DNA of 64,000 nucleotides from the NCBI RefSeq assembly GCF_003790525.1, contig NZ_CP033635.1. The stretch is one strand, 5' to 3'. Shown here one piece after another: positions 3,193 to 64,000 of the stretch; the stretch's first letter is position 1, and every line of letters begins with the position of its first letter. A program made the translations under genes and the position numbers. The notes below the pieces were generated by a model, which did no database searches, had not been told where the DNA came from, and worked only from the letters and a program-made list of their open reading frames with translations. This stretch comes from Escherichia coli. GTDB taxonomy: Bacteria; Pseudomonadota; Gammaproteobacteria; Enterobacterales; Enterobacteriaceae.

Positions 3193-3277
<85 letters not shown>

Positions 3278-3311
3278 AGGGGTAATTCAAATTTTGAGGT
3301 AATGCTTGAGA

Positions 3312-3396
<85 letters not shown>

Positions 3397-5018: not shown

Positions 5019-5924
5019 ATGAGAAAGATAAAAATAGGGCTGGCGCTGGGATCTGGCGCGGCGAGAGGTTGGTCGCATATTGGCGTTATTAATGCGCTAA
5101 AAAAAGTGGGTATTGAAATTGATATCGTTGCAGGATGCTCAATTGGTTCGCTGGTGGGCGCGGCCTATGCATGCGATCGATTATCTGCGCTGGAAGATTG
5201 GGTAACCTCTTTCAGTTATTGGGATGTTTTACGCCTGATGGATCTCTCCTGGCAGCGCGGTGGGTTACTGCGCGGCGAGCGTGTCTTCAATCAATATCGC
5301 GAAATAATGCCGGAAACAGAGATCGAAAATTGTTCCCGTCGCTTCGCGGCTGTTGCCACCAATTTAAGTACTGGGCGCGAATTATGGTTTACTGAAGGCG
5401 ATCTCCATCTTGCTATTCGTGCATCATGCAGTATTCCAGGACTAATGGCACCCGTTGCGCATAACGGCTACTGGCTGGTTGATGGCGCTGTAGTTAACCC
5501 AATTCCTATTTCGCTCACGCGTGCATTGGGTGCTGATATTGTGATAGCGGTCGACCTGCAGCACGATGCTCATTTGATGCAACAAGATCTGCTCTCCTTT
5601 AATGTCAGTGAAGAAAATAGCGAGAATGGTGATTCTCTGCCGTGGCATGCGCGTCTGAAAGAAAGGTTGGGCAGCATAACGACACGTCGGGCGGTGACAG
5701 CGCCAACGGCAACAGAGATTATGACCACTTCTATCCAGGTGCTGGAGAACCGCCTTAAAAGGAACCGCATGGCAGGTGATCCGCCCGATATTCTGATTCA
5801 ACCTGTTTGCCCGCAAATATCTACGCTTGATTTCCATCGCGCGCACGCTGCCATTGCGGCTGGGCAGCTGGCAGTGGAAAAGAAAATGGACGAACTTTTG
5901 CCGTTGGTACGCACCAACATTTGA
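5019..5924 (+). CDS. rssA: patatin-like phospholipase
   Basis: GxGxxRG and GCSIGS patatin motifs; start chosen at MRKIKIG (301 aa), longer ORF begins at 4980. Confidence 0.85.
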   Translation: MRKIKIGLALGSGAARGWSHIGVINALKKVGIEIDIVAGCSIGSLVGAAYACDRLSALEDWVTSFSYWDVLRLMDLSWQRGGLLRGERVFNQYREIMPETEIENCSRRFAAVATNLSTGRELWFTEGDLHLAIRASCSIPGLMAPVAHNGYWLVDGAVVNPIPISLTRALGADIVIAVDLQHDAHLMQQDLLSFNVSEENSENGDSLPWHARLKERLGSITTRRAVTAPTATEIMTTSIQVLENRLKRNRMAGDPPDILIQPVCPQISTLDFHRAHAAIAAGQLAVEKKMDELLPLVRTNI

Positions 5925-49181: not shown

Positions 49182-49257
49182 GTCCCTTTAGCTCAGTGGT
49201 GAGAGCGAGCGACTCATAATCGCCAGGTCGCTGGTTCAAATCCAGCAAGGGCCACCA
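49182..49257 (+). tRNA. tRNA with CAU anticodon (Ile2/Met-type, ileZ-like)
   Basis: cloverleaf folds by eye: D stem GCTC/GAGC, anticodon loop CTCATAA, T loop TTCAAAT, CCA encoded; one mismatch at pair 2-71. Confidence 0.8.
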
Positions 49258-49258
49258 A

Positions 49259-49335
49259 CCGCCACTAGCTCATCAGGAGAGAGCATCAGCCTTCTAAGCT
49301 GACTGTGCGGGGTTCGAGTCCCCGGTGGCGGTCCA
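49259..49335 (+). tRNA. tRNA-Arg (UCU)
   Basis: cloverleaf folds by eye: D stem GCTC/GAGC, anticodon stem TCAGC/GCTGA, loop CTTCTAA, T stem CGGGG/CCCCG, CCA encoded. Confidence 0.85.
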
Positions 49336-54137: not shown

Positions 54138-54287
54138 TTGATGATGCCTCTGTGTGAAATGACGGTAAACGACGCACTTGTGCCGGCACATAATAGCAAG
54201 CATCAGAATAGATCAGATTCGATTCTTGCTGTAAGTGATAATTATTCTCGTTTTTTCGGGTCCTTTCCGGCGATCCAACAGGTTACG

Positions 54288-54299
54288 GGGCGTCGACCT
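54288..54299 (+). other. cos site cohesive-end sequence (cosN), lambda-like
   Basis: ...ccggcgatccaacaggttacg GGGCGTCGACCT cgcgggttttcgctatttatg closely matches the remembered lambda cos junction; about 180 bp upstream of Nu1. Confidence 0.7.
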
Positions 54300-54476
54300 C
54301 GCGGGTTTTCGCTATTTATGAAAATTTTCCGGTTTAAGGCATTTCCGTTCTTCTTCGTCGTAACTTAATGTTTTTATTTAAAATACCCCCTGAAAAGAAA
54401 GGAAACGACAGGTGCTGAAAACGAGCTTTTGGGCCTCTGTCGTTTCCTTTCTCTGTTTTTGGCCGTGGAATGAACA

Positions 54477-55025
54477 ATGGAAGTCAACAAAAAGCAGCTG
54501 GCTGACATTTTCGGTGCGAGTATCCGTACCATTCAGAACTGGCAGGAGCAGGGAATGCCCGTTCTGCGAGGCGGTGGGAAGGGTAATGAGGTGCTTTATG
54601 ACTCTGCCGCCGTCATAAAATGGTATGCCGAAAGGGATGCTGAAATTGAGAACGAAAAGCTGCGCCGGGAGGTTGAAGAACTGCGGCAGGCCAGCGAGAC
54701 AGATCTGCAGCCCGGTACGATTGATTACGAACGCTACCGTCTCACAAAAGCACAGGCAGATGCGCAGGAACTGAAAAATGCTCGTGAAGAAGGGCTGGTT
54801 CTTGAAACGGAATTATTTACCTACATTTTTCAGCGAGTTGCGCAGAATATATCCGGGATCCTTGTTCGTGTTCCGCAGACACTGCAGCGTAAATACCCTG
54901 ATATATCACCAGCACATCTTGATGCTGTGAAAACTGAAATCGCGAAAGCATCCGATGTGGCTTCTGAATCAGGTGAGAATGTGTGGAGGTGGATTGATGA
55001 TTTCAGACGAGCTGAGGGCGGCTAA
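54477..55025 (+). CDS. nu1: terminase small subunit
   Basis: [42 protein letters not shown] matches lambda Nu1 N-terminus. Confidence 0.92.
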
Positions 55026-56925
55026 CTCTACAGGAGCGATAACGACTGGTCTCCTTGCGCTAAAAATTCCTGTACCCCTGACGACAGTTCAGTGGGCAGA
55101 TCAACATTATTACCTGCCGAAAGAGTCGTCTTACACACCAGGGCGGTGGGAAACATTGCCGTTTCAGGTTGCCATAATGAACAGTATGGGTAATGACCTG
55201 ATCCGCACTGTTAATCTGATTAAATCTGCCCGTGTTGGTTATACAAAAATGCTGTTGGGAGTGGAGGCTTATTTTATTGAGCATAAATCCCGCAACAGTC
55301 TGCTTTTTCAGCCCACGGACTCAGCTGCTGAAGATTTTATGAAATCTCATGTTGAGCCAACGATAAGGGATGTTCCTGCATTGCTGGAGCTGGCTCCATG
55401 GTTCGGAAGAAAACACCGCGATAATACGCTCACCCTGAAGCGTTTTTCCTCCGGTGTGGGGTTCTGGTGTCTGGGTGGTGCGGCAGCAAAAAACTACCGT
55501 GAAAAATCCGTGGATGTGGTCTGTTATGACGAGCTTTCCTCGTTCGAACCGGATGTTGAAAAAGAGGGCTCGCCAACCCTGCTGGGGGATAAGCGTATTG
55601 AGGGCTCTGTATGGCCAAAATCCATTCGCGGCTCGACGCCTAAAATCAAAGGCTCCTGCCAGATCGAAAAAGCCGCTAACGAGTCGGCACATTTCATGCG
55701 TTTTTATGTGCCCTGCCCGCACTGTGGGGAGGAGCAGTATCTGAAATTTGGCGATGAATCCACGCCTTTTGGCCTTAAATGGGAGAAGGAAAGCCCCGAA
55801 AGCGTTTTCTACCTTTGTGAGCATCATGGCTGTGTGATCCATCAGTCTGAGCTTGACCAGAGTAACGGGCGGTGGATCTGTGAAAACACGGGCATGTGGA
55901 CCCGTGACGGCCTGATGTTTTTCAGCGCCCGGGGTGATGAAATTCCGCCGCCGCGCTCCATCACTTTCCATATCTGGACGGCGTACAGTCCGTTCACCAC
56001 CTGGGTACAGATTGTCTATGACTGGCTGGATGCACTGAAAGATCCCAACGGCCTGAAAACCTTTGTGAACACCACGCTGGGCGAGACCTGGGAAGAGGCC
56101 GTGGGCGAAAAACTCGATCACCAGGTACTGATGGATAAGGTTGTGCGTTACACGGCGGCGGTGCCTGCCCGGGTGGTTTATCTGACGGCGGGCATTGACT
56201 CGCAGCGAAACCGTTTTGAGATGTATGTCTGGGGATGGGCTCCGGGAGAGGAAGCCTTTCTGGTGGATAAAATCATTATTATGGGGCGTCCCGATGAGGA
56301 AGAGACACTGTTACGTGTGGATGCAGCGATCAACAAAAAATACTGCCATGCAGACGGAACCGAAATGACCATTTCCCGTGTCTGCTGGGACATCGGGGGG
56401 ATCGATGGCGAAATCGTTTATCAGAGGTCAAAAAAACACGGTGTTTTCCGGGTGCTGCCGGTAAAAGGCGCATCTGTCTATGGCAAGCCGGTGATCACCA
56501 TGCCAAAAACCCGCAATCAGCGGGGCGTGTATCTGTGTGAAGTGGGCACGGACACCGCAAAAGAAATTCTCTATGCCCGTATGAAAGCCGCTCCCACGCC
56601 TGCGGATGAATCCACGTCGTATGCCATCCGTTTTCCTGATGATCCGGAGATTTTTTCGCAGACAGAGGCGCAGCAACTGGTCGCGGAAGAGCTTGTGGAG
56701 AAGTGGGAAAAAGGAAAGATGCGTCTGCTGTGGGATAACAAAAAGCGGCGTAACGAAGCGCTGGACTGCCTGGTGTATGCCTACGCGGCATTACGTGTGT
56801 CCGTGCAACGCTGGCAGCTTGATCTGGCTGTACTGGCAAAATCCCGGGAAGAAGAGACGACCCGGCCAACCCTTAAAGAACTGGCAGCGAAGCTGTCCGG
56901 AGGAGTGAATGGTTACAGTCGCTGA
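54997..56925 (+). CDS. A: terminase large subunit
   Basis: start [11 protein letters not shown] overlapping Nu1 3' end; Walker-like ATPase region and close match to lambda gpA. Confidence 0.92.
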
Positions 56926-57115
56926 ACTGCAGGCGCTGCGTCAGGCGCGCCTTGATTTATTAACCGGTAAACGGGTGGTGTCTGTCCAGAAAGATGGTCG
57001 CAGAATTGAATATACGGCGGCTTCTCTGGATGAGCTTAACCGGGCGATCAATGATGCGGAGTCGGTACTGGGGACAACCCGACGTCGCCGTCGTCCGCTG
57101 GGAGTGAGGTTATGA
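56909..57115 (+). CDS. W: head-tail joining protein W
   Basis: 68 aa, ...LTGKRVVSVQKDGRRIEYTAASL... matches lambda gpW. Confidence 0.88.
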   Translation: MVTVAELQALRQARLDLLTGKRVVSVQKDGRRIEYTAASLDELNRAINDAESVLGTTRRRRRPLGVRL

Positions 57116-58704
57116 AAAGAACGCCTGTCCTGATTGATGTGAACGGCGTTCCGCTTCGTGAGAGTCTCAGCTACAACGGGGGCGGCGCAGGATTTGGCGG
57201 GCAAATGGCGGAGTGGTTGCCACCGGCGCAGAGTGTCGATGCGGCCCTGCTGCCCGCGTTGCGTCTGGGGAATGCCCGGGCAGATGATCTGGTGCGCAAT
57301 AACGGAATAGCGGCTAATGCGGTGGCCCTGCATAAGGATCACATAGTCGGGCATATGTTTCTGATCAGCTACCGTCCGAACTGGCGCTGGCTGGGGATGC
57401 GGGAGACCGCAGCAAAAAGCTTTGTCGATGAGGTGGAGGCGGCCTGGTCGGAATACGCCGAAGGGATGTCTGGCGAGATCGACGTGGAAGGAAAACGCAC
57501 GTTCACGGAATTTATCCGGGAAGGCGTGGGCGTTCATGCGTTTAACGGCGAAATCTTTGTGCAGCCGGTCTGGGATGCGGAGACTACGCAGCTGTTTCGT
57601 ACGCGTTTTAAAGCCGTGAGTCCGAAACGGGTGGACACGCCAGGATACGGTTTGGGGAACCGCTTTCTGCGGGCCGGGGTGGAGGTCGATCGGCATGGAC
57701 GGGCCGTTGCGTACCATATCTGTGAGGATGATTTTCCGCTCTCTGGTAGTGGACGATGGGAACGGATCCCGCGTGAACTTCCCACCGGGCGTCCGGCCAT
57801 GCTGCATATTTTCGAGCCGGTTGAGGACGGGCAGACCCGTGGGGCTAATCAGTTTTACAGCGTCATGGAACGGCTGAAAATGCTCGATTCCCTGCAGGCA
57901 ACACAGCTTCAGTCAGCCATAGTGAAGGCGATGTATGCAGCGACGATTGAAAGTGAACTTGATACCGAAAAGGCCTTTGAATATATCGCCGGTGCGCCGC
58001 AGGGGCAGAAGGATAATCCGCTTATTAATATTCTGGAGAAGTTCTCCAGCTGGTATGACACGAATAACGTGACACTGGGCGGTGTCAAAATTCCGCACCT
58101 TTTCCCCGGTGATGATCTGAAACTACAGACTGCGCAGGATTCAGACAATGGATTTTCTGCGCTTGAACAGGCGCTGCTGCGGTATATCGCCGCCGGTCTT
58201 GGCGTTTCCTACGAACAGTTGTCCCGTGATTACTCGAAGGTCAGTTATTCAAGTGCCCGCGCCTCCGCCAATGAGTCGTGGCGCTATTTTATGGGGCGGC
58301 GAAAATTTATTGCGGCCCGGCTGGCCACGCAGATGTTTTCCTGCTGGCTGGAAGAGGCTCTTCTGCGGGGGATTATTCGTCCGCCACGGGCGCGTTTTGA
58401 TTTTTATCAGGCGCGTTCATCCTGGTCACGGGCAGAGTGGATTGGAGACGGAAGAATGGCCATTGACGGGCTCAAGGAGGTCCAGGAATCGGTGATGCGC
58501 ATTGAGGCCGGACTGAGCACGTATGAGAAAGAGCTGGCGCTGATGGGTGAGGATTATCAGGACATTTTCCGCCAGCAGGTCAGGGAATCTGCAGAGCGGG
58601 AAAAAGCCGGACTCTCACGTCCGGTGTGGATAGCGCAGGCGTATCAGCAGCAGATAGCGGCGAGTCGCAGGCCGGAAGAGGAGACAACACCACGTGAGAC
58701 GTAA
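57112..58704 (+). CDS. B: portal protein
   Basis: 530 aa, lambda gpB-like, position after W. Confidence 0.9.
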   Translation: MKRTPVLIDVNGVPLRESLSYNGGGAGFGGQMAEWLPPAQSVDAALLPALRLGNARADDLVRNNGIAANAVALHKDHIVGHMFLISYRPNWRWLGMRETAAKSFVDEVEAAWSEYAEGMSGEIDVEGKRTFTEFIREGVGVHAFNGEIFVQPVWDAETTQLFRTRFKAVSPKRVDTPGYGLGNRFLRAGVEVDRHGRAVAYHICEDDFPLSGSGRWERIPRELPTGRPAMLHIFEPVEDGQTRGANQFYSVMERLKMLDSLQATQLQSAIVKAMYAATIESELDTEKAFEYIAGAPQGQKDNPLINILEKFSSWYDTNNVTLGGVKIPHLFPGDDLKLQTAQDSDNGFSALEQALLRYIAAGLGVSYEQLSRDYSKVSYSSARASANESWRYFMGRRKFIAARLATQMFSCWLEEALLRGIIRPPRARFDFYQARSSWSRAEWIGDGRMAIDGLKEVQESVMRIEAGLSTYEKELALMGEDYQDIFRQQVRESAEREKAGLSRPVWIAQAYQQQIAASRRPEEETTPRET

Positions 58705-60199
58705 TCTTTCACACATTATTGCCGCAGCATTCAATGAACCGCTGCTTCTGGAGCCCGCCTATGCGCGGGTTTTCTTTTGCGCGCTCGGGCGCGAGATGGG
58801 GGCAGCAAGTCTTTCGGTACCACAACAGCAGGTACAGCTTGATGCTCCCGGAATGCTGGCTGAAACGGACGAGTACATGGCCGGAGGTAAACGACCGGCC
58901 CGTGTTTACCGGGTGGTGAACGGTATTGCTGTACTGCCGGTGACCGGCATGCTGGTGCACCGGCTGGGTGGTATGCGGCCATTTTCCGGAATGACAGGCT
59001 ATGACGGCATTGTCGCCTGTCTTCAGCAGGCAATGGCGGACACCGCTGTCCGGGGCGTACTGCTGGACATTGACAGTCCGGGCGGGCAGGCCGCAGGCGC
59101 GTTTGACTGCGCTGACATGATTTACCGCCTCCGTCAGCAGAAGCCGGTCTGGGCAGTGTGCAATGACACGGCCTGTTCTGCAGCCATGCTGCTGGCGTCG
59201 GCCTGCTCCCGACGGCTGGTTACCCAGACATCCCGTATCGGCTCCATTGGCGTGATGATGAGCCATCTCAGCTATGCCGGTCATCTGGCGCAGGCCGGTG
59301 TGGATATCACGCTGATTTATGCCGGGGCGCACAAGGTGGATGGCAATCAGTTTGAAGCCTTACCGGAAGAGGTGCGTCAGGACATGCAGCAGCGCATTGA
59401 TGCGGCACACCGGATGTTTGCCGAAAAAGTGGCGATGTATACCGGGCTGTCTGTGGATGTGGTCACGGGAACAGAGGCCGCCGTTTTTGAAGGTCAGTCC
59501 GGCATTGAGGCCGGGCTGGCGGATGAATTAGTCAATGCGTCGGATGCCATCAGTGTGATGACCACGGCGCTGTACACACATGATACAGGAGGCACTATGC
59601 CGCAATTAACTGCAACGGAAGCCGCCGCGCAGGAGAACCAGCGAGTGATGGGGATCCTGACGAGTAAGGAAGCGAAAGGACGTGAACAGCTTGCCACGAT
59701 GCTGGCGGGACAACAGGGCATGAGCGTTGAACAGGCCCGGGAGATCCTGGCCGCGGCGGCACCACAGCAGCCGGTGGCATCCGCGCAGAGTGAAGCCGAT
59801 CGCATTATGGCGTGTGAAGAGGCGAAAGGTCGTGAACAACTGGCGGCAACGCTGGCGGCGATGCCGGAGATGACGGTGGAAAAAGCCCGCCCGATCCTGG
59901 CAGCTTCACCGCAGGCGGATGCCGGACCATCACTCCGTGATCAGATCATGGCCCTGGATGAGGCAAAAGGGGCTGAGGCGCAGGCTGAACAGCTGGCTGC
60001 CTGCCCGGGAATGACCGTGGAGAACGCCCGGGCTGTGCTGGCTGCGGGATCAGGTAAGGCAGAACCGGTCTCTGCATCCACAACCGCCATGTTTGAACAT
60101 TTCATGGCGAACCATTCACCGGCAGCGGTACAGGGTGGCGTGCCACAGACGTCAGCAGACGGTGATGCGGACGTGAAAATGCTCATGGCCATGCCATGA
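58694..60199 (+). CDS. C: head maturation protease C with nested scaffold (Nu3-like) region, carrying internal tandem repeats
   Basis: GTG start; N-terminal ClpP/S49-like protease region matches lambda gpC; C-terminal part has three copies of an approx 40-aa motif (EAKGREQLA...MTVE.AR.ILAA). Confidence 0.85.
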   Translation: MRRNLSHIIAAAFNEPLLLEPAYARVFFCALGREMGAASLSVPQQQVQLDAPGMLAETDEYMAGGKRPARVYRVVNGIAVLPVTGMLVHRLGGMRPFSGMTGYDGIVACLQQAMADTAVRGVLLDIDSPGGQAAGAFDCADMIYRLRQQKPVWAVCNDTACSAAMLLASACSRRLVTQTSRIGSIGVMMSHLSYAGHLAQAGVDITLIYAGAHKVDGNQFEALPEEVRQDMQQRIDAAHRMFAEKVAMYTGLSVDVVTGTEAAVFEGQSGIEAGLADELVNASDAISVMTTALYTHDTGGTMPQLTATEAAAQENQRVMGILTSKEAKGREQLATMLAGQQGMSVEQAREILAAAAPQQPVASAQSEADRIMACEEAKGREQLAATLAAMPEMTVEKARPILAASPQADAGPSLRDQIMALDEAKGAEAQAEQLAACPGMTVENARAVLAAGSGKAEPVSASTTAMFEHFMANHSPAAVQGGVPQTSADGDADVKMLMAMP

Positions 60200-60235
60200 A
60201 GCCAGTGCTGACCATCAATAGGAGGTTTTGACAAT

Positions 60236-60583
60236 ATGGTAACGAAAACCATCACTGAACAGCGTGCGGAAGTACGTATTTTTGCCGGTAATGATCCGGC
60301 TCACACCGCCACAGGCAGCAGCGGGATTTCCTCGGCAACACCGGCACTGACGCCCCTGATGCTGGATGAAGCCACCGGGAAACTGGTGGTCTGGGACGGA
60401 CAGAAAGCCGGAGGTGCGGTTGGCATACTGGTACTGCCGCTTGAAGGCACAGAGACGGTGCTGACGTATTACAAGTCGGGGACTTTTGCGACGGAGGCAA
60501 TCCGCTGGCCTGACAGTGTGGATGAACACAAAAAGGCCAACGCCTTTGCAGGCAGTGTCCTGAGTCACGCGGCGCTGCCGTAA
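60236..60583 (+). CDS. D: head decoration protein D
   Basis: 115 aa, ...DPAHTATGSSG...TPLMLDEATGKLVVWDG... matches lambda gpD. Confidence 0.88.
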   Translation: MVTKTITEQRAEVRIFAGNDPAHTATGSSGISSATPALTPLMLDEATGKLVVWDGQKAGGAVGILVLPLEGTETVLTYYKSGTFATEAIRWPDSVDEHKKANAFAGSVLSHAALP

Positions 60584-60640
60584 CACGTTATCAGGCCACC
60601 GCGGTGGCCTGACTGATTTCTGAATGAAAGGAACTGATTT

Positions 60641-61669
60641 ATGGGATTGTTTACGACCCGCCAGTTACTCGGTTATACCGAACAAAAAGTGAAATTTCGT
60701 GCGCTGTTTCTGGAGCTGTTTTTCCGTCGTACGGTGAATTTCCATACCGAAGAGGTGATGCTGGACAAAATTACCGGAAAAACGCCGGTGGCGGCCTATG
60801 TCTCCCCGGTTGTTGAAGGAAAAGTGCTGCGTCATCGTGGTGGTGAAACCCGCGTCTTGCGTCCGGGATACGTCAAGCCGAAACACGAATTTAATTCCCG
60901 GCAGGCGGTTGAGCGCCTTCCTGGTGAAGATCCGGCTCAACTGAACGATCCGGCTTACCGCCGTCTGCGTATCATTACCGATAACCTCAAACAGGAAGAG
61001 TACGCGATTGTCCAGGTGGAAGAAATGCAGGCGGTAAATGCCGTGCTGTATGGCAAATACACCATGGAAGGAGACCAGTTCGAGAAAATTGAGGTCGATT
61101 TTGGCAGATCGCCGGCGAATAACATTACGCAGGCCAGTGGTAAAAAATGGTCTGAGCACGATCGTGACACGTTCGATCCTGCGCATGATATTGACCTCTA
61201 CTGCGACCAGGCCAGCGGCCTTGTGAATATTGCCATTATGGACGGTAGCGTCTGGCGTCTGCTGAATGGTTTTAAGCTGTTCCGCGAAAAACTGGATACC
61301 CGTCGCGGTTCAAATTCGCAACTCGAAACGGCAGTGAAAGACCTGGGGGCGGTGGTGTCTTTCAAAGGGTATTACGGTGATCTGGCCATTGTGGTGGCGA
61401 AAACGTCTTATGTGGCAGAGGACGGTACCGAAAAACGTTATCTGCCAGACGGCACGCTGGTCCTGGGGAATACTGCTGCAGATGGGATCCGTTGTTACGG
61501 TGCCATTCAGGATGCACAGGCGTTGTCTGAAGGCGTGGTGGCCTCTTCCCGTTATCCGAAACACTGGCTGACGGTGGGGGATCCCGCCCGTGAATTTACC
61601 ATGACGCAGTCCGCGCCGCTGATGGTGTTGCCGGACCCGGATGAGTTTGTGGTGGTACAGGTGAAATAA
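60641..61669 (+). CDS. E: major capsid protein E
   Basis: 342 aa, ...TPGYVKPKHE..., ...TRRGSNS.LETAVKDLG..., ...YPKHW.TVGDPAREFTM.QSAPLM matches lambda gpE. Confidence 0.92.
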   Translation: MGLFTTRQLLGYTEQKVKFRALFLELFFRRTVNFHTEEVMLDKITGKTPVAAYVSPVVEGKVLRHRGGETRVLRPGYVKPKHEFNSRQAVERLPGEDPAQLNDPAYRRLRIITDNLKQEEYAIVQVEEMQAVNAVLYGKYTMEGDQFEKIEVDFGRSPANNITQASGKKWSEHDRDTFDPAHDIDLYCDQASGLVNIAIMDGSVWRLLNGFKLFREKLDTRRGSNSQLETAVKDLGAVVSFKGYYGDLAIVVAKTSYVAEDGTEKRYLPDGTLVLGNTAADGIRCYGAIQDAQALSEGVVASSRYPKHWLTVGDPAREFTMTQSAPLMVLPDPDEFVVVQVK

Positions 61670-61720
61670 TCCGTGAGCGGGGGCGAAATGCCCCCGTGTC
61701 TTTTTTCACAGAGGCCTGAT

Positions 61721-62083
61721 ATGGCAACGAAAGAGCAAAATCTGAAACGGCTTGATGAACTGGCCCGGATTCTGGGGCGTGAGCCGGATATATCCGGGAG
61801 TGCCGCAGAGATAGCGCAGCGGGTGGCGGAATGGGAAGAGGAAGCAGAGGACAAAAACCAGGAGAGTGATGAGAACGAAAGGCATTTGATGACGTATAGC
61901 TACTCCACTGGCGGGGATGAAATGAGCACTGTTCGTGTACTCAAAACCCTGCATGTGGCGGGAAAACATCCGCATGATGACAGTGATATGGAGATTGTTG
62001 TTACAGGTATGACTGTCAGAGTTGATCCAGTGAATGTTGCGGAACTTGTCCTGGAGGGGCTTGTTACAGATGAAAGTTATTAA
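61721..62083 (+). CDS. FI: DNA packaging protein FI-like
   Basis: start MATKEQNLKRL; position between E and FII; acidic central region. Confidence 0.6.
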   Translation: MATKEQNLKRLDELARILGREPDISGSAAEIAQRVAEWEEEAEDKNQESDENERHLMTYSYSTGGDEMSTVRVLKTLHVAGKHPHDDSDMEIVVTGMTVRVDPVNVAELVLEGLVTDESY

Positions 62084-62432
62084 TATCAGGGATAACGGTT
62101 TTGATACAGCCATTGCCCGGGCTGATGAAACGATACGCGGGCATATGGGAACGTCAGCCACCATTACATCCGGTGAGCAGCCCGGCGCAGTAATACGTGG
62201 TGTTTTTGATGACCCTGAAAATATCAGCTATGCCGGACAGGGCGTGCGCGTTGAAGGCTCCAGCCCGTCCCTGTTTGTCCGGACTGATGATGTGCGGCAA
62301 CTGCGGCGTGGAGACACGCTGACCATCGGTGAGGAAAACTTCTGGATAGACCGGGTTTCGCCGGATGATGGCGGAAGCTGTCATCTCTGGCTTGGGCGTG
62401 GCGTGCCGCCTGCCGTTAACCGTCGTCGCTGA
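62070..62432 (+). CDS. FII: head-tail connector protein FII
   Basis: start MKVINIRDNGFDTAIARADETIRGHMGTSATITSGEQPGAVIRG matches lambda gpFII. Confidence 0.85.
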   Translation: MKVINIRDNGFDTAIARADETIRGHMGTSATITSGEQPGAVIRGVFDDPENISYAGQGVRVEGSSPSLFVRTDDVRQLRRGDTLTIGEENFWIDRVSPDDGGSCHLWLGRGVPPAVNRRR

Positions 62433-62443
62433 AAGGGGGATGT

Positions 62444-63019
62444 ATGGCCATACAGGGTCTTGAGCAGGCCGTTGAAAACCTCAGTCGTATCAGCAGAACG
62501 GCGGTGCCCGGTGCGTCAGCAATGGCCATTAACCGCGTGGCCACAACGGCGATTAATCAGTCTTCGTCTCAGGTCGCCCGTGAAACCCGGGTGCCGAGAA
62601 AACTGGTTAAACAGCGATCCAGACTGAAACGGGCTACGGTCAGAAATCCGAATGCAAAAATTATCGTTAACCGAGGTGATCTCCCTGCTATTAAGCTGGG
62701 GATCAGGATGCTTGGTCATCGCCCGAACAGCATACTCAAAGCCGGTCAGCATCGTTATCAGCGGGCATTCATCCAGCGATTAAATAATGGGCGCTGGCAT
62801 GTTATGCAACGTCTGCCAGAAGCCAGGTATGCGAAGGGCAATGACGATAAGGGAAGGAAAAAGCGTAATCGTCTTCCCATTCAGGTGGTGAAAATTCCGA
62901 TGGCGGTCCCACTGAAACAGGCTTTTGATGAGAACGTTAACCGTATCCGGCGAGAACGTCTGCCAAAAGAACTGAGCTATGCGCTGAAACAACAACTGAG
63001 GATTGTGATAAAGCGATGA
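62444..63019 (+). CDS. Z: tail completion protein Z
   Basis: 191 aa, MAIQGLEQAVENLSRIS...ERLPKEL.YAL...LR.VIKR matches lambda gpZ. Confidence 0.88.
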   Translation: MAIQGLEQAVENLSRISRTAVPGASAMAINRVATTAINQSSSQVARETRVPRKLVKQRSRLKRATVRNPNAKIIVNRGDLPAIKLGIRMLGHRPNSILKAGQHRYQRAFIQRLNNGRWHVMQRLPEARYAKGNDDKGRKKRNRLPIQVVKIPMAVPLKQAFDENVNRIRRERLPKELSYALKQQLRIVIKR

Positions 63020-63411
63020 AACATACTGAACTCCGTGCAGCCGTACTGGATGCACTGGAGAAGCATGACACCGGGGCGACGCTTTTTGATGGTCGCCCCG
63101 CTGTTTTTGATGAGGCGGATTTTCCGGCAATTGCCGTTTATCTCACCGGCGCTGAATACACGGGCGAAGAGCTGGACAGCGATACCTGGCAGGCAGAGCT
63201 GCATATTGAAGTTTTCCTGCCTGCTCAGGTGCCGGATTCAGAGCTGGATTCGTGGATGGAGTCCCGGATTTATCCGGTGATGAGTGATATCCCGGCACTG
63301 TCAGATTTGATCACCAGTATGGTGGCCAGCGGCTATGACTACCGGCGCGACGATGATGCGGGCCTGTGGAGTTCAGCCGATCTGACTTATGTCATTACCT
63401 ATGAAATGTGA
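63016..63411 (+). CDS. U: tail terminator protein U
   Basis: 131 aa, [37 protein letters not shown] matches lambda gpU. Confidence 0.9.
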
Positions 63412-63418
63412 GGACGCT

Positions 63419-64000
63419 ATGCCTGTACCAAATCCTGTAATGCCGGTGAAAGGTGCCGGGACCACACTGTGGGTTTATAAGGGGAACGGTGACCCTTATG
63501 CGAATCCGCTTTCAGACGTTGACTGGTCGCGTCTGGCTAAAGTTAAAGACCTGACGCCCGGCGAACTGACCGCTGAGTCCTATGACGACAGTTATCTCGA
63601 TGATGAAGATGCGGACTGGGCCGCGACCGGACAGGGGCAGAAATCCGCCGGAGATACCAGCTTCACGCTGGCGTGGATGCCCGGAGAGCAGGGGCAGCAG
63701 GCGCTGCTGGCGTGGTTTAATGAAGGTGATACCCGTGCCTATAAAATCCGCTTCCCGAACGGCACGGTCGATGTGTTCCGCGGCTGGGTCAGCAGCATCG
63801 GTAAGGCGGTGACGGCGAAAGAAGTGATCACCCGCACGGTGAAAGTCACTAACGTGGGTAAACCTTCTGTAGCGGAAGAACGCAGCAAAATTACGCCGGT
63901 CAGTGCGATTAAGGTGACGCCGACATCCGGTACGGTGGCAAAAGGGAAAACAACCACCCTGACGGTTTCTTTTGAGCCGGAAAGTGCAACCGACAAGACG
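63419..64000 (+). CDS. V: major tail protein V, 3'-partial (runs off window)
   Basis: frame from ATG 63419 reads [57 protein letters not shown]..., lambda gpV-like; no stop before window end. Confidence 0.85.

Follow-up and report, generated by a model that had tools for sequence, protein, structure and literature searches.

The gene at 58694-60199 of a 64,000-nucleotide stretch of Escherichia coli DNA (contig NZ_CP033635.1 of assembly GCF_003790525.1, the whole of which is called the window here) is best read, with a probability of roughly 85%, as a phage-21-type C/Nu3 gene pair, in which a prohead protease and a scaffold share a C-terminus that carries three ancient and selected copies of a small module, the Tri box of phage 21, and in which that module may act as a docking element. 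The parts of the gene on which this reading leans are these:

58694..60199, plus strand: prohead protease/scaffold gene of the lambda C / phage 21 gene 5 type (open reading frame of 501 aa with a GTG start)
59129..59566, plus strand: S49 (SppA/ClpP-like) peptidase domain, aa 146-291 (Pfam PF01343 Peptidase_S49, E 5.2e-36)
59586..59591, plus strand: Shine-Dalgarno sequence AGGAGG of the nested scaffold gene (sequence acAGGAGGcactATG)
59597..60199, plus strand: putative scaffold gene of 200 aa nested in the same frame (gene 6 in phage 21, analogue of lambda Nu3), its ATG being Met302 of the protease frame
59633..59761, plus strand: repeat unit 1, aa 314-356 (dot-plot, hidden Markov model and mapping of the Tri1 box)
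59792..59911, plus strand: repeat unit 2, aa 367-406 (dot-plot, hidden Markov model and mapping of the Tri box)
59933..60052, plus strand: repeat unit 3, aa 414-453 (dot-plot, hidden Markov model and mapping of the Tri3 box)
60065..60196, plus strand: C-terminal tail common to protease and scaffold (FEHFMANHSP...KMLMAMP), homologous in alignments to lambda LDRLMQGAP...DLLNTPV

That the scaffold region holds one motif three times in tandem, as the initial annotation had read from the letters, is confirmed. The protein plotted against itself (BLOSUM62 dot-plot) shows two strong diagonals, shifted by 50 aa and by 47 aa, which join residues of about 314-356, 367-406 and 414-453, that is, nucleotides of about 59633-60052, which the interval 59620-60060 first drawn around the array correctly encloses. 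Pairwise local alignment of the three segments gives scores of 96, 102 and 76, where composition-preserving shuffles give means of about 26 with a standard deviation of about 5 (z = 10-15), and a hidden Markov model of the unit matches the window protein in full three times and lambda gpC once (aa 355-403). This single match and the alignment with lambda C, in which the window protein has two extra copies, uphold the earlier statement that lambda carries one. The proposed length of 40 residues holds for the conserved core, although the period is 47-50 residues, with EAKG anchors at aa 326, 376 and 423 (nt 59669, 59819 and 59960). Between copies, the 31-aa cores are 55-65% identical as protein and 60-68% identical as DNA; of the 17-20 residues identical between copies, 9-11 use different codons, and the longest in-register exact run is 6-9 nt. 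The array was not reported by Tandem Repeats Finder when run on the window DNA, and a DNA repeat search linked copy 1 to copy 2 alone (70% identity over 97 nt), so that the repeat is mainly a protein-level one.

In phage 21 gene 6 the three repeats are already known as Tri boxes, a feature that was annotated decades ago. A tblastn search of a phage collection returned 17 records at 90% identity or more, with phage 21 at 94.8%, and the GenBank record M81255 ('Bacteriophage 21 head gene operon') lists gene 5, the nested gene 6 and, within gene 6, three repeat_region features named 'Tri1 box', 'Tri box' and 'Tri3 box', each noted 'function unknown; putative'. These boxes map without indels to 59664-59767, 59804-59914 and 59945-60058 of the window and translate to the same three units. 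Phage 21 gene 5 (head-tail preconnector gp5; UniProt VG05_BPP21) has the same 1506 nt and 501 aa, is 94.8% identical to the window gene in amino acids and 96.5% in nucleotides with no indels, and has its internal Shine-Dalgarno sequence, its ATG and all three unit positions as in the window; only 25 amino-acid substitutions separate the two proteins, and they cluster at aa 294-298, just before the scaffold start. The surrounding prophage, however, is unlike phage 21. In the protein collection, at least 1000 contigs carry the exact phage 21 gp5 sequence, and 130 carry that of the window protein. The source paper of the Tri boxes is, we assume, Smith and Feiss (Gene, 1993).

As for the gene that holds the array, its earlier designation as a head protease/scaffold of the lambda C/Nu3 type is correct, as the S49 domain and the gene order portal-C-D-E show: the gene is a lambda C/Nu3-type prohead protease with a putative nested scaffold. 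The 501-aa protein matches phrog_53 'head maturation protease' (E 3e-223), and solved SppA structures in the PDB (3rst and 4kwb) match the protease at E about 1e-15. The residues C161-S162-A163 are unchanged in an alignment of the window protein with lambda, ev017 and D2, in which S162 stands opposite lambda S166. Ser166 is reportedly the active-site serine of lambda gpC (Medina et al. 2010), and Ser162 of the window protease appears to be its conserved counterpart. In its last 200 aa the protein matches two further families, phrog_8399 'head scaffolding protein' and phrog_8940 'capsid assembly protein', in three stretches each. The start of this part has the spacing AGGAGG-N5-ATG at 59586-59599; a homologous nested coding sequence is annotated in two phage 21 records, and a putative ribosome-binding site is annotated at the homologous position in the phage 21 records M81255 and OL657228. 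A putative internal start at 59597 would yield a scaffold with the C-terminus of the protease.

Lambda gpC/gpNu3 offers a close parallel in plan, with an S49 protease, a nested in-frame scaffold that shares its C-terminus and the order B-C/Nu3-D-E, all as in the window. Lambda gpC (taken from the lambda imm434 record) is 57% identical overall to the window protein, but it has one module followed by the homologous C-terminal tail where the window protein has three modules, and it carries a lambda-specific linker of 36 aa upstream of its module. The view that the extra copies lengthen the scaffold stands for the full C protein (501 aa against 439 aa in lambda) but is not clearly true of the nested product, which has 200 aa where classical Nu3 has 201 aa, because the internal start of the window lies further downstream and lambda has its own 36-aa linker. 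The position of that start in lambda is itself of some interest. Lambda has AGGAGG-gcga-ATG at gpC Met306 (2391-2403 of the lambda locus L001; about 5322-5334 of the imm434 record), homologous to the Met302 start of the window, whereas the classical Nu3 start is an ATG at L001 2200 (Met239), inside the protease domain and with a distant GGAG only, and the window has an Ile codon where Met239 lies (59390-59400). The imm434 annotation uses a third start, at 5035 of that record. The scaffold start is thus placed differently in the lambda annotation and in the 21-type gene, although lambda retains a strong ribosome-binding site at the 21-type position, and the N-terminus of the lambda scaffold may deserve re-checking. 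In Escherichia phage D2 (OM475427; L003 1486-3003) the C gene is a natural hybrid: over its first ~110 residues the protein does not differ from lambda gpC, and from there on it is of the phage 21 type, with three units, which places a recombination junction inside the protease gene.

Three copies had been presented as an implied departure from lambda, yet a head module of the phage 21 type normally has three, which are annotated as Tri boxes in M81255 and are found in phage 21, ev017, Gifsy-1 and 1869 of the 5426 complete E. coli genomes. The three-copy scaffold region (603 bp) is therefore carried by about a third of these genomes, with the lambda-type one-copy form in 3232 of the 5426 and a four-copy lineage in 106. 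Across related prophages the repeat number is 1 in lambda, 3 in phage 21, ev017 and Gifsy-1, and 4 in P0033/L010, a comparison that the initial annotation had proposed. Salmonella homologues, including Gifsy-1, align with the window protein copy for copy. The Gifsy-1 protease (STM2605; 498 aa) is 62.9% identical to it over the full length and has three positionally orthologous units and the same tail, although the linkers and tail have diverged and the linkers carry short indels. In a neighbour-joining tree of units, which is built on short sequences and serves as a rough guide only, all first copies cluster with the single copy of lambda, while units 2 and 3 of the window each pair with the Salmonella unit of the same number. 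Unit 1 is the orthologue of lambda's single copy, and the triplication is ancient, copies 2 and 3 predating the separation of the phage-21-type head module of E. coli from the Gifsy-type one of Salmonella.

The array is not free of variation, and the first alternative to be weighed builds on this, namely that the array is a recent, unstable expansion and a recombination hotspot whose copy number shifts by unequal homologous crossing-over. Length variants do exist among close relatives. A word-indexed homologue search with the 200-aa scaffold, the matches of which were mostly gene fragments, helped to find variants but was unfit for a copy-number census. One variant (P0022) is an exact in-register hybrid of copies 1 and 2 that leaves two units, and two others (P0017 and P0018) have two different deletions in copy 2. 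A 482-aa allele (L007, 298-1746; E. coli 98198, WP_001253887.1; UniRef B7N3L2_ECOLU) is without 19 residues of unit 2, those that form helices 2-3, and by exact-sequence look-up is present on at least 1000 contigs, and a 516-aa allele (L006), the exact sequence of which is on one contig, has a 15-aa tandem duplication inside unit 3. There is also the separate four-copy E. coli lineage (P0033/L010), which has the same module, tail and gene order and a capsid protein 82% identical to that of the window, and in which the mutual identity of units 2-4 is 82-89% and Tandem Repeats Finder detects the array in DNA with a period of 138 nt. However, the in-register exact runs in the window are only 6-9 nt, the copies being 60-68% identical in nucleotides, and homologous (RecA-type) recombination normally needs exact matches far longer than this, so that the copies are too diverged for its ordinary form. 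Both variant junctions that were read in DNA lie instead at microhomologies of 5-9 nt made of recurring Leu-Ala-Ala codons, the 57-bp deletion in unit 2 being flanked by CTGGC(G/A)GC (CTGGCNGC) and the 45-bp duplication in unit 3 by GCTGGCTGC. Microhomology junctions are typical of slippage. When 60 of the 1874 E. coli records that match were sampled at even spacing, 57 had a match of exactly 603 bp in one piece, and the positional orthology of the three copies in Gifsy-1 likewise speaks against recency. A recent expansion driven by crossing-over is therefore unlikely, and the array is mostly stable, its variants probably arising via microhomology slippage. Of the earlier suggestion of recombinational length variation, the variation is real (a 19-aa deletion, a 15-aa duplication and rare whole-unit deletions), but the mechanism is probably another one.

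Two side observations belong with these relatives. The four-copy contig (L010 1-6042; GCA_032727965.1, ABNWJB010000046.1) carries S49 protease, D-like, E-like, FI and FII-like genes, with GPW_gp25 and Baseplate_J genes within about 3 kb downstream of the head genes; a head module of the lambda type is here combined with a baseplate module of the contractile-tail type. In the protein collection, a 90%-identity cluster of 501-aa S49 peptidases also lists 530-aa proteins named 'phage portal protein' and has a representative of 530 aa; this mixture of S49 and portal proteins looks like a clustering quirk, and cluster sizes need care.

A second alternative, slightly less probable again than a recent expansion, takes the repeats to be a functionless Ala-rich spacer, low-complexity filler in an intrinsically disordered scaffold. 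The sequence is indeed rich in Ala, Gln and Glu, between one and four copies occur, and many contigs carry the allele with half a unit deleted; lambda Nu3, moreover, is reportedly intrinsically disordered, going by the title of a 2011 paper by Medina et al. The divergence from Gifsy-1, however, is distributed in a way that filler would not be expected to show. Nonsynonymous divergence (pN) is 0.18 in unit 1, 0.18 in unit 2 and 0.26 in unit 3, against 0.22 in the protease domain, whereas the linkers (0.39-0.41) and the C-terminal tail (0.49) diverge about twice as fast; synonymous sites are saturated in this comparison (pS 0.59-0.83). As the values for the units are close to that for the protease domain, the copies are not neutral filler, each being as constrained as the protease domain, and each of the three is under purifying selection. 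The motif has also persisted far beyond the close relatives, in that a profile of the unit finds at least 1194 clusters (50% identity) among 1.84 billion representative proteins at E<=1e-3, with near-invariant E, A, G, R, A, L and A positions. Finally, structure prediction does not suggest disorder within the unit. AlphaFold, given the 200-aa scaffold with 13 sequences, returned the same helix pattern three times at a predicted local distance difference test score (pLDDT) of 72-83, with disordered linkers and a predicted template modelling score of 0.28; given the last unit and the tail with an 80-sequence alignment, it returned unit 3 at a pLDDT of 91-93, with helices at segment residues 8-13, 22-30 and 36-46, and a tail helix at 55-68 (pLDDT 70-80). 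Each unit is thus predicted to fold alone as a small three-helix bundle.

The wider distribution of the unit bears on its history. No Pfam or NCBIfam model covers it and no PDB sequence matches it. Among the best 150 of the 1194 clusters, 135 have one copy per protein, 7 have two and 3 have three, and one copy is the usual state and probably the ancestral one. In these 150 the module lies in the tails of S49 proteases or in small stand-alone proteins; in the 52 long proteins among them (380 aa or more) the motif ends about 48 aa before the C-terminus, and the long matches scanned against Pfam carry the S49 domain. The stand-alone proteins are of ~130 aa, and on the one contig examined such a protein occupies the place of a scaffold, its gene being immediately followed by those for head decoration and the major head protein. 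The weakest alternative, that the Tri boxes act as DNA or RNA elements such as repeated binding sites or structures, draws on their listing in M81255 as repeat_region features of no stated function and on another phage 21 record that puts pattern-matched CII-site motifs in the region, but it is very improbable given the conservation at the protein level in spite of differing codons and low nucleotide identity, the blindness of Tandem Repeats Finder to the array in DNA and the retention of the peptide motif in distant homologues.

The reading of the array as three selected protein modules allows a mechanism to be proposed. One reading frame encodes the S49 prohead protease, and an internal ribosome-binding site with the ATG at 59597 would give rise to a 200-aa scaffold in the same frame. 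The C-terminal part common to the two products consists of three diverged modules of ~40 residues, flexible linkers and a conserved tail of ~45 residues. The module may then act as a protein-protein docking element, candidate partners being the major capsid protein, the portal and other scaffold molecules, and its presence on protease and scaffold alike would draw both into the growing procapsid, where extra copies may add valency or reach. For lambda Nu3, interactions with E, C and B and between Nu3 molecules are reported (PMC3224144). Several points weigh against this proposal. The annotation of the internal ribosome-binding site is itself labelled 'putative', and the conserved C-terminal tail, instead of the module, could be the real capsid-docking element. 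In addition, whether a form has one, three or four copies, its major capsid protein is of 341-342 aa (that of the window being 60% identical to lambda gpE), and at least 1000 contigs carry the allele in which half of unit 2 is missing, both of which argue against a critical role for the exact copy number and against strict dosage.

A more specific version of the docking proposal is doubtful and is offered tentatively: the Tri unit may be an unnamed, widespread, UBA/CUE-like three-helix docking element of lambda-type scaffolds and proteases for the capsid protein or portal, with copy number (1, 2, 3 or 4) tuning valency or reach, and with the common 19-aa deletion allele as a natural hypomorph or an adaptation. 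The scaffolding protein of P22 has a small C-terminal helix-turn-helix domain that binds coat. The comparison with the P22-type scaffold is one of analogy only, in that both would have a small helical element close to the C-terminus with which to dock on coat; the module of the window, unlike the P22 domain, is three-helical, repeated and followed by a further tail of ~45 aa, and comparison with the C-terminal domain of P22 gp8 yielded no sequence match and no significant structural match.

The genes around the protease/scaffold gene complete a head region in the order portal, protease/scaffold, decoration and major capsid, which matches the annotation of the E. coli TUM1886 region, phage 21 and lambda:

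57112..58704, plus strand: portal gene of the lambda B / phage 21 gene 4 type (530-aa open reading frame; homologous annotation)
60236..60583, plus strand: head decoration gene of the lambda D / phage 21 shp type (115-aa open reading frame, annotated so in homologous loci)
60641..61669, plus strand: major capsid protein gene of the lambda E / phage 21 gene 7 type (342-aa open reading frame)

The 3' end of the portal frame and the start of the protease gene share 11 nt, and the counterpart of the portal frame is annotated 'phage portal protein' both in phage 21 and in TUM1886, where the corresponding region is 99.8% identical. Minus-strand open reading frames that run across the repeats (e.g. 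59494-59805 and 59941-60255) were set aside as probable by-products of GC-rich coding sequence. Within the protease gene, Tandem Repeats Finder reported a nearly palindromic 15-nt unit, TGCCGGTGACCGGCA, in 1.9 copies at 58935-58964, which is probably coincidental coding sequence (VLPVTG).

Taken as a whole, the head region at 54230-63855 is 99.8% identical to a TUM1886 prophage that lies beside yecE (L011, E. coli TUM1886, NZ_CP128970). In this comparison, which was made from 50708, the lysis region matches in patches only (about 96%) and nothing matches upstream. The window prophage is a mosaic that has the head module alone in common with the TUM1886 prophage. Adjacent tRNA-Met (CAT) and tRNA-Arg (TCT) genes lie at 49182-49335, in the late-gene part of the phage-like region and ahead of the genes for lysis and terminase, an arrangement common among lambdoid and Stx prophages, and two tRNA-Tyr (GTA) genes lie in tandem on the minus strand at 3193-3396.

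The triplication as such adds little, being a long-known feature of phage 21 that many prophages of E. coli and Salmonella share. What the analysis contributes is the recognition of the unit as a discrete and conserved module of lambda-type scaffolds that is predicted with confidence to form three helices, and for which a Pfam-style family would be definable from the unit alignments. Two-copy forms exist too, capsid sizes having been compared for the one-, three- and four-copy forms, and these natural forms with capsids of the same size, together with the half-unit deletion, would provide a ready series with which to probe the part played by the module in procapsid assembly.

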